A stretch of 4,635 nucleotides of DNA. Origin: a virus (taxonomy: Duplodnaviria > Heunggongvirae > Uroviricota > Caudoviricetes). Shown here piece by piece: positions 1 to 3,205 of this stretch (within the stretch, counting starts at the first letter, position 1; every line of letters begins with the position of its first letter). Position numbers and translations under genes: made by a program. The stretch lies in IMG/VR virus record IMGVR_UViG_2740892423_000025. One strand, 5' to 3'. Below the pieces are notes generated by a model. The model saw only the letters and a program-made list of their open reading frames with translations, was not told the origin of the DNA and did no database searches.

Positions 1-387
1 GTGCAATATTTAAAAGGAACGCCATTACATCAGGCCCGATTTGCAGGCGTCAGGATTACATGTCCTTCAGAGCTTTCCTCTTCAATAGAGGAGTATTTTA
101 AAAATAATGGATTTGATATAGGTCGTGTGACTTGCTTCTCTGCGAATGCACCCGATATGCTTAGTGTTACGTTTGAGTTGCTCTCACGGGCGAAAAAATT
201 TGCAGAGGTTATTATGGGGTTATTGAACAGGAATGATGTCGAAGTTGAATTACACCTTTGTACCAGAGACGATGAGCCTAAAACTGCAAAGCTCAAATTA
301 AGAAACCTCAAAGATGTTGATGCGTGTGAGCGTCTGATTGATAAACTGGCTGCAGTGGTAATAACGCCAAAGAAAAATGAAGAATAA
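1..387 (+). CDS. hypothetical protein, probably 5'-truncated at the window edge (family not recognised)
   Basis: Frame open from base 1 to TAA at 385-387. The GTG at 1 cannot be tested as a true start because no upstream sequence is in the window. Followed 24 nt later by an intrinsic terminator. Amino-acid composition looks protein-like. Confidence 0.5.
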   Translation: MQYLKGTPLHQARFAGVRITCPSELSSSIEEYFKNNGFDIGRVTCFSANAPDMLSVTFELLSRAKKFAEVIMGLLNRNDVEVELHLCTRDDEPKTAKLKLRNLKDVDACERLIDKLAAVVITPKKNEE

Positions 388-410: not shown

Positions 411-449
411 GGAAATAAAAAGCCCGCGACTAATCCTGCGGGCTTTTTG
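411..449. terminator. bidirectional rho-independent terminator shared by the convergent 1-387 gene and the hok-like transcript
   Basis: Stem 421-427 (agcccgc) pairs with 438-444 (gcgggct), 10-nt loop. Flanked by an A-rich tract 411-420 (a U-tract when read on the - strand) and TTTTT at 445-449 on the + strand. Confidence 0.6.
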
Positions 450-468
450 CATTCAGGTTTGTGAGATG

Positions 469-483
469 GGGTGCCTTATCGGC
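469..483 (-). promoter_or_regulatory. fbi-like 3' element of the toxin mRNA, complementary to its predicted 5' end (810-823)
   Basis: Plus 469-483 gggtgccttatcggc is an inverted repeat of plus 810-823 gccgaaaggcaccc. In the - strand RNA, 5' GGGUGCCUUUCGGC can pair with GCCGAUAAGGCACCC in the 3' UTR: 14 bp with one bulged U, including 9 contiguous perfect bp. Confidence 0.4.
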
Positions 484-533
484 CTTACCCTGGCAACCGA
501 TTGACGGGGGATTGCTCCCCCGTCGCGGTTTCC

Positions 534-677
534 TTACGGTTTACACTGTAAGAACGCCGCAAACTCCGCTCCCCAGAAGCTCATCCGTATCTCGCAGAGC
601 GAACCCTGCAACATCCAGATGATGAGGATTGCCGTCACGCACAGTGTGGTGATGGCGATTAGCGATTTTTGCGACAT
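534..677 (-). CDS. hok: Hok/Gef-family type I toxin (small membrane protein), 47 aa
   Basis: Not in the ORF track (too short). Reverse-strand translation ATG 677-675 to TAA 536-534 gives MSQKSLIAITTLCVTAILIIWMLQGSLCEIRMSFWGAEFAAFLQCKP. Hydrophobic N-terminal segment, then SLCEIR and E-x-AAF motifs as in plasmid R1 Hok (…[25 protein letters not shown], from memory). SD AAGGAG about 8 nt upstream of the ATG. Confidence 0.8.
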   Translation of the reverse strand: MSQKSLIAITTLCVTAILIIWMLQGSLCEIRMSFWGAEFAAFLQCKP

Positions 678-780
678 AGCACTTGCTCCTTTTTCGGAGA
701 GGCGCTAACCTACGACTTGCGAAGGTTGTATGGCTAGGGCCTCGGGTTAACGTTAAAGTTGACTCGGGGCCTTTCCACAT
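541..780 (-). CDS. mok-like overlapping reading frame (79 codons) that fully overlaps the hok-like ORF in another frame
   Basis: ATG at 780-778 preceded by GAAGG. In-frame stop just upstream (793-795) fixes the maximal extent. Ends at TAA 543-541, 7 nt beyond the hok stop, the arrangement described for mok/hok. The protein sequence itself is not diagnostic. Confidence 0.4.
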   Translation of the reverse strand: MWKGPESTLTLTRGPSHTTFASRRLAPLRKRSKCYVAKIANRHHHTVRDGNPHHLDVAGFALRDTDELLGSGVCGVLTV

Positions 781-809
781 CCGGCCTTCGGTTTACCCTC
801 CAGCCATCA

Positions 810-823
810 GCCGAAAGGCACCC
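810..823 (-). promoter_or_regulatory. tac-like 5' element of the toxin mRNA (partner of 469-483)
   Basis: Lies exactly at the transcription start predicted independently from the promoter at 830-859. Complementary to 469-483 (see that feature). Confidence 0.4.
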
Positions 824-829
824 GCGCGA

Positions 830-859
830 ATTCTAGCCTGGTTTTTTCCCTTGTTTCAA
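830..859 (-). promoter_or_regulatory. candidate sigma70 promoter of the hok-like transcript
   Basis: On the - strand: -35 TTGAAA (859-854), 18-nt spacer, -10 TAGAAT (835-830). Predicted start near 823, giving a transcript of about 410 nt to the terminator at about 415, similar to the roughly 400-nt hok mRNA of R1. Confidence 0.35.
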
Positions 860-981: not shown

Positions 982-1239
982 GATCGTCATGTGCGATCGA
1001 GGCGCGGTATTGATCCTTTTTTCAGTTTAATTTTGACTCTTAATTTTACGCAGGCCGCGCCGCGTCTGGCTTCGTTGTTTGACGATTTTTTGATGCGATC
1101 CTTTCGCGATCGTGTCTTGTCCCACGTAAAGTATGAAAACTCTTTTAATATCATGCTGTTTTATTGCTACTGCCATTTGTGCGATCGTAAAAACCACTCT
1201 GAAAACTGCAAAAAATTTCAAAGCGTGAAATTTCAGATC
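982..1239. other. cluster of seven GATC (Dam) sites, three in the context GCGATCG; TGTGCGATCG occurs twice
   Basis: GATC at 982, 995, 1012, 1097, 1108, 1183 and 1236 (first base), counted by eye. 10-mer TGTGCGATCG at 990-999 and 1178-1187; CGCGATCG at 1105-1112. Confidence 0.5.
1213..1233. promoter_or_regulatory. AT-rich perfect palindrome AAATTTCA-N5-TGAAATTT, possible dimeric regulator site
   Basis: 1213-1220 aaatttca and 1226-1233 tgaaattt are exact reverse complements around a 5-nt spacer. GATC at 1236 lies 3 nt downstream. Confidence 0.3.
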
Positions 1240-1345
1240 TTCGCTTTTCCCTCAGTTGCTGCGCGGGCTGGCGGTCAGTTTTGCACGGCAGAAAACTGAA
1301 AAACTGTTTCGACACAAAACCCGCGGGTTGGAGGGGGTAGCGCGG

Positions 1346-1507: not shown

Positions 1508-3205
1508 TCAGGCGATAAGGTCGCCGTATTTTTCGCGCAGATTCGTGGCCTGCAGGGCATCTGCAGCAAGCTCGCTGCTGTTTGTTGGTGTGCCGGTGTT
1601 GCTGTGGGTATGGTTTGCAGTATGTGTGGCCAGCAACTGAACCAGATCCAGAATATCAATCAACAACGTCAGCAGATTAAGTCCGGATTTTTCCCGTGAG
1701 CCACTGCGACCAATAAATACTGTCGGGGCTGTAAACTCCAGACCACCGTCCGCCCGGCATGTTCTGCGGCCTCCCACGTTTTCAGTAAGGTCGCGCTCAA
1801 TCGTGGATGTCGCCCCTTTGAGTTTAGTCAGCAAATCCTGCGCTACCATCTGGATATGCTCACCGGCTGCGATCGCGTAATGGCCGGTAGTAAGGTGCTC
1901 TATTTGTCCTGCCATTAGCTTGCTGGTTCCCAGAACGCTGGTTATATCGTTTGCCTGTACTGTGGTTGTTCTGGTTGTTGTTGTGCGTTCCTCCTGATCG
2001 CTGTTAATGGTTCGCCGGGCTGAATGTTCTCTGATTTGCTGATCGGTTTCTCTGTGCCAGCTTCCGTCAGTCGTGACGCGCTGAAACACTTCTGCGCGCT
2101 GTTGCTGCAGCTGTTCGCCGGGCTTTACATCAGGCAGGTTATGGCCAGCGGGTAAGATTTGCCTGATAACGGGTTTGTCCGGACGTCCTTCAATGTTGGA
2201 TATTTCCACGATGGTGCCTGCCGGTGGGTAGGCAAAACATCCCGCCTCACTGCCAGCCATGGGGACGGGGAGCGGTACTGCCGGGTAAACGGGCGTGTCG
2301 CTTTTATCGTTGCCGTCCTCATCGAGCAGTTGCACATCGACGGCGTAGCGTGGGCGGAAACTGTCGGCCACATCGCCCAGGGTGGCGGGCTCCGTTGGCG
2401 CAATGACGCGCGCCAGCCGGGTATGTAGCGTACCGCTGGCCAGTTCCGGGAACTGTGTTTCCATTTGTCTGCGTAATGGTGATTTGGAAACAGGGTTACC
2501 CGTGGCGGTAAGGCGCTCCCATGTCAGGGTCATTTTCTCGTTGTTGAGGGCTACACGGGTAATGCGCCCGGCCGGTAGGTTCACGCCCGGTCGCACAGTT
2601 TCCATAAACATGATGTCGATGCTGTTTCCGCCGCTTTGCCCGAGCGTGTACTGTTGCGGAATATCCGGCATTGTAATACTGGCAAATCGTGAATCAGCTG
2701 CGCTTCCCACAAATACAGAACCGTCCGGCATAGGGTGCCAGACGTAATCGCTGATACTGAATGCTCGCCCCAGTTGGCTGAGCAGTTGTGCTCCGCTGCC
2801 GCTGTGGGTGATGTAGGGAGTTGGTATACTGGCATAATCCGCATCCGGAGTGATAAAAACGATACCGCTTTGTCGCCCCAGATTATCGAGTACCCTCCGC
2901 AACGTCGGGTGTTGCATGGAGCAAGGGAAATCAAAATCCAGCACAGCAGCCGCTTCACGAATAAAAAGGCGACGTGAGCCATTTTCAGCAGGTTGATCGC
3001 GCTCAATGTAGCCGGAGAAATAGCGCCATGCTTCACCGTCACGGCCGAGATCAATTTGTACCATTGCGCCGGCAAGGCTGTGTTCGGGTGACAGATTGTT
3101 AACAGAAATGAAGCCACGACCGGCAGCATTCAGGGTAAGAACAAGGCTTATATCGGCAATTTCCACCCGTTCGCCATTAATCATGCAGCGTTGTATCAAT
3201 TTCAT
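1508..3205 (-). CDS. baseplate hub/spike-like protein (gp5/gpV/VgrG-type OB-fold and His-rich tip behind a ~270-aa N-terminal domain), 565 aa
   Basis: Longest ORF in the window. SD GGAAGG 7-8 nt before ATG 3205-3203. Start overlaps the upstream stop (ATGA). Residues 327-347 PPAGTIVEISNIEGRPDKPVI match the P-x-x-G-x-x-V-x-I…G-x-x-D-x-P-V pattern I recall in P2 gpV and VgrG. C-terminal ATHTANHTHSNTG resembles the His-rich apex of P2 gpV (LHTHKH, from memory). Family call is by eye only. Confidence 0.7.
   Translation of the reverse strand: MKLIQRCMINGERVEIADISLVLTLNAAGRGFISVNNLSPEHSLAGAMVQIDLGRDGEAWRYFSGYIERDQPAENGSRRLFIREAAAVLDFDFPCSMQHPTLRRVLDNLGRQSGIVFITPDADYASIPTPYITHSGSGAQLLSQLGRAFSISDYVWHPMPDGSVFVGSAADSRFASITMPDIPQQYTLGQSGGNSIDIMFMETVRPGVNLPAGRITRVALNNEKMTLTWERLTATGNPVSKSPLRRQMETQFPELASGTLHTRLARVIAPTEPATLGDVADSFRPRYAVDVQLLDEDGNDKSDTPVYPAVPLPVPMAGSEAGCFAYPPAGTIVEISNIEGRPDKPVIRQILPAGHNLPDVKPGEQLQQQRAEVFQRVTTDGSWHRETDQQIREHSARRTINSDQEERTTTTRTTTVQANDITSVLGTSKLMAGQIEHLTTGHYAIAAGEHIQMVAQDLLTKLKGATSTIERDLTENVGGRRTCRADGGLEFTAPTVFIGRSGSREKSGLNLLTLLIDILDLVQLLATHTANHTHSNTGTPTNSSELAADALQATNLREKYGDLIA

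Follow-up and report, generated by a model that had tools for sequence, protein, structure and literature searches.

To our knowledge, DNA packaging under the control of methylation is known only for the pac site of phage P1. According to PMC10028697, which cites Sternberg & Coulby, P1 pac carries seven GATC sequences, methylation of adenine controls its cleavage, and Dam can be provided by the phage itself. Here we describe a cluster of GATC sites in a 4,635-bp stretch of viral DNA (IMG/VR record IMGVR_UViG_2740892423_000025), the whole of which is referred to as the window. By its sequence, the window represents the end of a prophage of the HP1/P2-like type (Peduoviridae) that is integrated beside serS, and the gene-free region after the last tail gene is very probably the phage cos (packaging) region. 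The GATC sites in this region are likely to be under Dam-linked selection. As the best explanation overall, to which we give a probability of about 0.4, the GATC array would be a Dam/SeqA gate or timer on the use of cos.

P1 pac is the nearest functional analogy, being a packaging site with multiple GATC; in the window, five conserved GATC are located in the left arm of cos, on the side away from the tail genes. P1 pac differs in its headful packaging, in its unrelated pacase, and in its GATCs, which are placed within conserved TGATCA/G hexamers that the enzyme binds and that lie on either side of the cut. For the window type, unlike P1 pac, the sequences flanking GATC vary, the sites stand on one side only, and satellite elements function without the sites. 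The region may work in a manner similar to P1 pac, but would not be a member of the pac type, because no conserved recognition repeat flanking the cut encloses its GATCs.

In position, the cos sites of HP1, HP2, K139, phiO18P, and ESSI-2 are like that of the window, following the homolog of HP1 orf35 and preceding attP or cargo genes. The window and this HP1 group have in common a core rich in C, flanked by ACG(T/G)AAA repeats toward the tail genes and by TTTTTCAG repeats away from them, as well as left-arm GATCs. The core itself differs (CTACCCCCTCCAACCCGC in the window versus CTACACCGCACCCGCC). The ESSI-2 and K139 types keep a GATC at 12 nucleotides (nt) after the core and the ESSI-2 type has GATCs also in the right arm, both of which are absent from the window type. 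The cos sites of P2 and its satellite P4 are similar in that the terminases belong to the homologous gpM/gpP family, the core is G/C-rich (P2, GGCGAGGCGGGGAAAGCAC), and P2 has TTTTTTCAG about 45 bp into its left end as a counterpart of the left-arm motif. Also as in the window type, the satellite shares the cos of its helper, and variable hotspots of defence or cargo genes adjoin cos (PMC9122126). As a difference, no GATC occurs in P2 or P4 nearer to cos than about 200 bp, and P2 cos is located beside the portal gene rather than after the tail operon. Phage lambda cos has the tripartite organization cosQ-cosN-cosB, which the window would resemble in having a predicted nicking site flanked by repeated motifs of a small-terminase-binding type in both orientations and by bendable AT-rich DNA. 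Lambda shows neither sequence nor protein homology to this locus, no IHF site was detected in the arm here with up to one mismatch allowed, and we know of no involvement of Dam at lambda cos. The SeqA targets such as oriC and the Dam/OxyR and Dam/Lrp switches are alike in carrying GATCs one or two helical turns apart (PMC2691817, PMC4856963), and differ in that the cluster here is without origin machinery, OxyR or Lrp sites, a promoter, and a regulated gene. In the literature search, whose reach did not include the older HP1 and K139 papers, no description was found of a GATC array at HP1-type cos sites, and no paper combined GATC, Dam, cos, and terminase.

The GATC cluster and the putative cos region

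Seven GATC are present within 258 bp between positions 982 and 1239 (at 982, 995, 1012, 1097, 1108, 1183, and 1236), exactly the number given in the original prediction, against about one expected by chance. The whole window holds 17 GATC versus approximately 16 expected from shuffles, and at its own rate about 0.95 would fall in 258 bp. Among 5000 shuffles of the window that preserved dinucleotides, 5 contained a stretch of 258 bp holding at least seven GATC. For the 656-bp intergenic stretch alone, the mean over shuffles was 1.8, and seven GATC were reached in 5 of the 5000. None of the other palindromic tetramers tested was enriched in this intergenic stretch. For the complete relative, prophage L007 (34.5 kb; 3.0 GATC/kb), the densest GATC spot was the cos-arm cluster, with 7 per 260 bp, followed by a runner-up with 4.

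The original prediction also pointed to the context GCGATCG, found at 995, 1108, and 1183, and to a duplicated 10-mer, TGTGCGATCG, found at 990 and 1178. Both are indeed present, but appear incidental because neither is kept in prophages of 94-96% identity, in which the second copy of the 10-mer reads tcatgaGATCgt or ttgcgtGATCgt. The sites at 982 and 995 are located within a junction segment (894-1011) detected only in close relatives with the hok cassette. The cluster of seven sites as first proposed is accordingly to be divided: the sites at 1012, 1097, 1108, about 1183, and 1236 are in a deeply conserved arm, while those at 982 and 995 and the duplication of the 10-mer fall outside it. The region was rightly taken as non-coding. 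Its reading frames are not conserved among homologs, the longest open reading frames (ORFs) being on differing strands and frames; 1-nt indels are present; and the Rfam scan gave no match inside the cluster, with only the neighbouring sok being matched.

The actual context of the cluster, a phage cos site, had not been recognized. We take the region as cos because of the position of the orf35 homolog, the resemblance of the core, and the matching flanking motifs. In deposited relatives laid out from their ends, the orf35 homolog is always the last gene, and the genome end follows, ahead of attP. The distance from its stop codon to the genome end is 192 bp for HP1, 215 bp for phiO18P, 198 bp for ESSI-2, and 174 bp for K139. 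In the HP1 record, cosL is annotated at 1-9 and attP at 251-694; both cosL and cosR are annotated in the phiO18P record, ESSI-2 has a 15-nt terminal repeat, and K139 shows the same layout. The core of the window, CTACCCCCTCCAACCCGC, aligns with the phiO18P cohesive end CTCATCCGCTCCCGCC and with the ESSI-2 terminal repeat CTACACCGCACCCGC. The flanking repeats, ACG(T/G)AAA and TTTTTCAG, are common to HP1, K139, ESSI-2, ev015, the Edwardsiella loci, and the window. In addition, the core and the right arm of the window are shared by satellites at an identity of at least 95%, which we count toward the identity of cos, as P4 shares its cos with P2 (PMC9122126). A DNA similarity search of the arm against deposited phages gave no match even in distant mode, and the link to HP1 was obtained through the orf35-homolog protein. 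On this basis the predicted cos region extends from 1012 to 1445, with the core at 1323-1340 lying between a right arm at 1344-1445 and a left arm of about 310 bp at 1012-1322.

The K139 record (L019; NC_003313) is linearised within the first GATC past the cos core, being split between ..tttttggat and cactttt.., at a place where a prophage copy (L134, 4274-4310) reads ..tttttgGATCactttt... Since the record is split inside a GATC that is intact in prophages, the deposited ends of K139 are probably a cloning junction and not the cohesive ends.

Conservation of the GATC sites and natural contrasts

Lack of conservation in related genomes had been named as part of a possible refutation; five of the seven GATC are kept in divergent phages. 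The left arm of the E. coli locus L004 is 66% identical to the window, and that of the Edwardsiella prophages L015 and L016 is 64% identical. The GATCs at 1012, 1097, 1108, and 1236 are exactly conserved in all three, and a replacement GATC is located 1-11 bp from 1183. Strict conservation in both L004 and L015 was thus observed for four of the five arm GATCs versus 15% of other tetramers (P about 0.002). A search with the cos core gave 24 hits in IMG/VR, and all 21 phage-type loci with a full-length arm hold 6-7 GATC in the homologous 345 bp.

The comparison was extended by an IMG/VR search with the orf35 protein, which gave 80 further loci and, after anchoring on the cos core, 42 lineages of less than 90% identity; a scan of genome contigs for relatives gave three loci. 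The left arms of the 42 enterobacterial lineages contain 162 GATC, 3.5 times the 45.9 expected from shuffles; the z-score is 17.7, which overstates independence because the compared lineages are related. Only CAGT, a component of the arm repeat, was more enriched than GATC, and no other palindrome was strongly enriched. The distances of GATC from the cos core are fixed across these lineages. Pairs of the form GATC-N7-GATC were found 27 times with 25 different spacers, 11 bp being by far the commonest short spacing, followed by 21 bp (5 times). The flanks of GATC differ by lineage, with the core tetramer staying constant. Five Vibrio lineages of the K139 type carry 5-6 GATC per arm, one of them about 30 bp from the core start; the arms include a pair with a distance of 10 bp and a second with 21 bp, the spacers again being variable. 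The left-arm GATCs number 2 in HP1, of which the arm is AT-rich, 3 within 35 bp in phiO18P, 4-5 in K139, and 3 in ESSI-2. As the tetramer and the spacing are constant while the flanks are free and sites turn over locally, selection appears to act on GATC itself. The GATCs seem to be maintained in this way in HP1-type phages of Dam-positive hosts, including Enterobacterales, Vibrio, Aeromonas, and Haemophilus.

In the right arm of the ESSI-2 type, GATCs are located on the tail-gene side, 50-75 and 175-200 bp before the core, in 30 of the 42 lineages. With GATCs on both sides, the ESSI-2-type sites would be arranged around the cut in the manner of P1 pac. On the tail-gene side, no GATC is present in the window type.

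Two natural contrasts are available. The Pseudomonas phi3-type arms share the same architecture, with the core CTTATCCCCCTCCCGCC, a GC hairpin, and repeated GTGAAA/TGCAAA motifs. No GATC was found in six of the eight phi3-type arms; in the seventh the first appears only at about +430, and the eighth has two. The surrounding DNA contains 4.5-7.5 GATC/kb. We know of no Dam, SeqA, or MutH in Pseudomonas. The other contrast is given by satellites. An element of about 12 kb in E. coli 52F4 (L158), located between gcd and hpt, is satellite-like, and L162 and L177 are members of its family in IMG/VR. The genes of these satellites include integrase, a P2-family major capsid protein, a possible scaffold, an Icd-like protein, a P4-alpha-like toprim primase, and ogr/Delta, together with hok in 52F4. 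Their left arm (58% identity) keeps all the other motifs and has no GATC. The ESSI-2 type has satellite counterparts as well (L183, L199, and L216), and the cos core of all these elements is the same, or almost the same, as in HP1-type helper phages. The ESSI-2-type arms beside orf35 contain about 3 GATC on average, and the primase-bearing elements without orf35, representing three lineages, contain 0-1, a difference with a Mann-Whitney P of 0.005 for lineages that are not independent; the single GATC of these primase elements is located at or beyond the edge of the arm. The presence of GATCs in phages of Dam-positive hosts and their absence from the Pseudomonas relatives and the satellites altogether indicate that they are selected as Dam sites and are not needed for packaging. 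The idea that GATCs are required for cutting by terminase was dropped, since satellites with the same core carry no GATC.

Possible control of cos use and alternative explanations

According to the explanation that we favor, the methylation state of the array would control the use of cos by the phage's own terminase. Terminase itself might sense this state, or SeqA might do so by binding to hemimethylated pairs. Circles that had just been replicated, and were still hemimethylated, would for example not be cut until Dam had caught up, and satellites, having lost the sites, would escape the gate. P2-type terminases cut monomeric circles, and therefore holding back hemimethylated circles would protect replication templates. 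SeqA prefers hemimethylated GATCs that are spaced on one face of the helix (PMC2691817). The pair at 1097 and 1108, separated by 11 bp, agrees with the spacing of a SeqA cluster, that is, at least two GATC on one helix face about 1-3 turns apart. Since pairs 10-11 or 21 bp apart recur, the array is a plausible SeqA target. HP1, K139, ESSI-2, ev015, and phiO18P each encode a DNA methyltransferase, and that of HP1 is a Dam according to the references listed in PMC7556043. The packaging gate as a specific mechanism, drawn from sequence comparison and from the analogy with P1 pac, is put forward tentatively. It is rather doubtful that P4-like capsid-encoding satellites purged the sites and gain packaging priority over HP1-type helpers of Dam-positive bacteria that are gated at cos.

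Several observations weigh against control of cos by methylation. Satellites with the same cos core have 0-1 GATC; the sites are hence not needed for cutting or packaging, and only a regulatory or negative role is compatible with these elements. A role unrelated to packaging would fit the satellite data equally well. The absence of GATC around the cos of P2 and P4, P2 being GATC-poor overall (0.74/kb), means that the feature is not general to the family, and even some ESSI-2-type phage arms hold just 0-1 GATC. The window-type prophage has no obvious Dam gene; L007 carries only, as cargo, an N6_N4 methyltransferase of unassigned specificity and a Com-like regulator. The conserved GATCs of the window type are all on one side of the core at a distance of 85-310 bp, unlike those of P1 pac. 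To these points should be added the relatedness of the compared lineages, and the fact that the hosts of the phi3-type contigs from IMG/VR were inferred from similarity to phi3.

Two other explanations of the array are to be considered. It could control transcription, as a Dam/SeqA-sensitive promoter or insulator located between cos and either the cargo hotspot or attP, and interleaved only by chance with the arm. Such an element might drive or shield cargo or int-side transcripts, as the arm borders a hotspot of which the genes often read away from cos, and packaging of satellites without GATCs is in agreement with it. In the Vibrio K139 type, a promoter-like sequence TTGACG-17-AATGAT overlaps the third GATC, P2 has by annotation the old/tin promoter in its cos-proximal region, and SeqA reportedly can act as a transcription factor at lambda pR. 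We regard control of transcription as unlikely, however, because no sigma-70-like promoter is predicted in the arm of the window or of the ESSI-2-type loci L056 and L098, and because the -35 spacing is not kept among the Vibrio lineages. Cargo differs in identity and in orientation, the direction being toward cos for the 128-amino acid (aa) ORF of the window and for the cargo of ev015; hok and some other cargo genes are served by promoters of their own; and there is no conserved downstream gene. Alternatively, the array could be a patch for SeqA binding or sequestration that serves replication, topology, or segregation of phage DNA, by marking or tethering new circles, with no direct effect on terminase. 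The pairs at 10-11 or 21 bp with free spacers fit the preference of SeqA (PMC2691817), the sites are restricted to phages of host groups with both Dam and SeqA, and the satellites, which replicate with their own primase, are without the sites. The fixed positions relative to the core, beside the cos-arm repeats, would be unexplained if cos were irrelevant, and the origin of the phage would be expected at a distance, within the gpA-type gene. A SeqA patch of this kind is distinctly unlikely.

The original prediction had pointed to replication origins, SeqA targets, and Dam-dependent phase-variable promoters, taken here as an origin under Dam/SeqA control or a promoter of the pap, agn43, gtr, or opvAB type. 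The sites do behave as Dam sites under selection, as the tetramer and its helical spacing are kept and the sites are nearly absent from the Pseudomonas relatives; the origin and the phase-variable promoter are not supported, and even jointly they are very improbable. A superficial likeness to an origin comes from the GATC cluster, the AT-rich block, and the short repeats. No DnaA box free of mismatches is present, the hits with one mismatch are not above the level of shuffles, and no initiator gene is adjacent, the P2 gpA-type replication endonuclease of L007 being encoded about 25 kb from cos. The apparent iterons are cos-flank motifs that are common to HP1, of which the cos end is annotated. 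As to a phase switch, GATC pairs do occur in OxyR/Dam switches (PMC4856963). In the cluster, neither an OxyR-like half-site nor a sigma-70-like promoter was found, flanks and spacers are free and not conserved as an overlapping protein site would require, and no regulated gene is conserved downstream, where the cargo is variable. Least credible of all is that the GATCs are functionless and were conserved only by neutral hitch-hiking with the arm. The first-stage scan covered many windows and motifs, the P value at the level of the window is about 0.001, and the compared lineages share ancestry, all of which would favor chance. Against it, GATC is kept far better than the neighbouring tetramers, lost sites are replaced nearby, the spacing of pairs is kept while the spacers vary, and GATC is lost in satellites and Pseudomonas-type arms that keep the other arm motifs.

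If Dam/SeqA control of cos use were true, this would be the first methylation-controlled cos site, and would open a new axis of conflict between helpers and satellites. Epigenetic control of packaging would extend to cos phages, here a large temperate family from enterobacteria, vibrios, Aeromonas, and Pasteurellaceae, and a role would be given to the methyltransferases carried by these phages. GATC is reportedly selected against in enterobacterial phages, and the retention of GATCs in one spot despite such counter-selection could be explained. Because the Pseudomonas relatives and the satellites retain the arm architecture but not the GATCs, a few point mutations would suffice for a direct test of the idea. 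The result also locates the probable cos site, and the cargo hotspot adjoining it, in a common but unannotated type of E. coli and E. albertii prophage.

Elements of the arms and neighbouring genes

The elements recognized in and around the putative cos region are listed in Table 1. The right-arm motif belongs to a family that is also present ahead of cos in HP1 (cacgtaaa, cacggaaa), K139, and phiO18P. In the 46.5-kb L007 locus, which spans the 34.5-kb prophage, three of the six matches to the right-arm motif are at cos, and the strict left-arm motif occurs three times, always within this arm. HP1, ESSI-2, and even P2 carry TTTTTCAG at the position of copy 1. At the place of TGAAATTTCA, the ESSI-2-type arms have a nested palindrome. 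The possibility that the arm motif represents sites for a P2 Ogr-type activator was rejected, as it does not recur at the late promoters of L007.

Table 1. Features of the window around the predicted cos region
Feature	Position	Strand or sequence	Remarks
cosN-like core, predicted staggered terminase cut	1323-1340	GCGGGTTGGAGGGGGTAG on +, CTACCCCCTCCAACCCGC on -	168-185 bp after the stop of the orf35 homolog
Right-arm repeats, three copies	1346-1383	TTTACGT at 1346 and 1363; TTTACGC at 1377	GACGTAAA-type on the minus strand
Inverted copy of the right-arm motif inside the left arm	1124-1130	ACGTAAA	Kept in L004, L015/L016, and satellites
AT-rich block	1130-1240		Left arm
Left-arm motif, copy 1	1291-1303	GAAAACTGAAAAA	20-30 bp from the core
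Left-arm motif, copy 2	1201-1213	GAAAACTGCAAAA
Left-arm motif, copy 3, inverted	1018-1028	TTTTTCAGTTT	Adjoins GATC 1012; outer edge of the conserved arm
Palindrome	1226-1235	TGAAATTTCA	Adjoins GATC 1236; kept in E. coli-type arms
GC-rich inverted repeat	1051-1068	CAGGCCGCGCCGCGTCTG	Kept in all arm types
Deeply conserved part of the left arm with five GATC	1012-1239		GATC at 1012; pair at 1097/1108 (11 bp apart); about 1183 (position shifts between lineages); 1236
HP1 orf35 homolog, 565 aa, last gene of the tail/baseplate operon	1508-3205	-	tblastn, alignment
HP1_ORF34 baseplate-complex protein, 191 aa	3202-3777	-	Pfam PF25759, E 8e-54
Intrinsic terminator of the late tail operon	1446-1469	-
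hok/sok-type toxin-antisense cassette	436-851	-	Cargo outside the conserved arm
Strong terminator hairpin in the junction segment	940-957	+

The window matches prophages of E. coli and E. albertii. The related L007 is a complete 35-kb P2-like prophage with P2-type capsid and terminase, ogr/Delta, the gpA-type replication endonuclease, cox, repressor, and integrase, and none of its other intergenic regions comes near the gene-free stretch of about 650 bp in size. Read along the minus strand, the window holds in order the genes for a 237-aa protein, a 191-aa protein, and a 565-aa protein, the terminator, the gene-free stretch, hok/sok, and the 128-aa ORF, which is next to serS. By tblastn, the 565-aa protein is 42% identical to orf35 of HP1 and HP2 and 47-49% identical to that of the ESSI-2 group. 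Pfam gave no match for the 128-aa, 565-aa, and 237-aa proteins. The hok ORF is located at 534-677 on the minus strand with its promoter at 859-830, and the Rfam match to sok (664-823) scored under the gathering threshold. The same hok/sok cassette is found in Stx phages, P88-like phages, and plasmids. A promoter-like sequence, TTGAGG-18-TAAAAT, at 864-893 on the plus strand is followed by the hairpin of the junction segment, which suggests a possible transcript of 50-70 nt divergent from hok. The 128-aa ORF (1-387, plus strand) between hok and serS was detected only in the exact-match contigs L009 and L011.

A breakpoint of homology with alternative cargo is located exactly at 1012, the homology to L003 and L004 beginning at 1010-1012. 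Beyond it, the relatives carry hok alone; hok with TM2, a Com-like regulator, and an N6_N4 methyltransferase; or a YafO toxin pair with an ATP-dependent nuclease. The variable genes beyond 1012 appear to represent a hotspot for cargo beside cos, such as has been described for P2 and P4 (PMC9122126). The cargo between the cos arm and attL was recorded as L001/L007 653-1601, L003 2415-5896, and L004 4912-6071. The combination of the Com-like zinc ribbon and the N6_N4 DNA methyltransferase is an arrangement like com/mom of Mu, and the partner of the YafO toxin carries the annotation 'SufA'. In L007, ParM and a partition/stability protein are encoded at 26254-27532 beside the replication endonuclease gene, in a prophage that integrates.

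Past the last arm repeat, about 400-450 bp beyond the core, a LexA-box-like sequence TACTGT-N8-ACAGTA was found in ESSI-2-type loci such as L038, L039, L045, and L055, and at the record end of ESSI-2 (L018). This sequence suggests an SOS-controlled gene beside cos in ESSI-2-type loci, similar to tum of phage 186.

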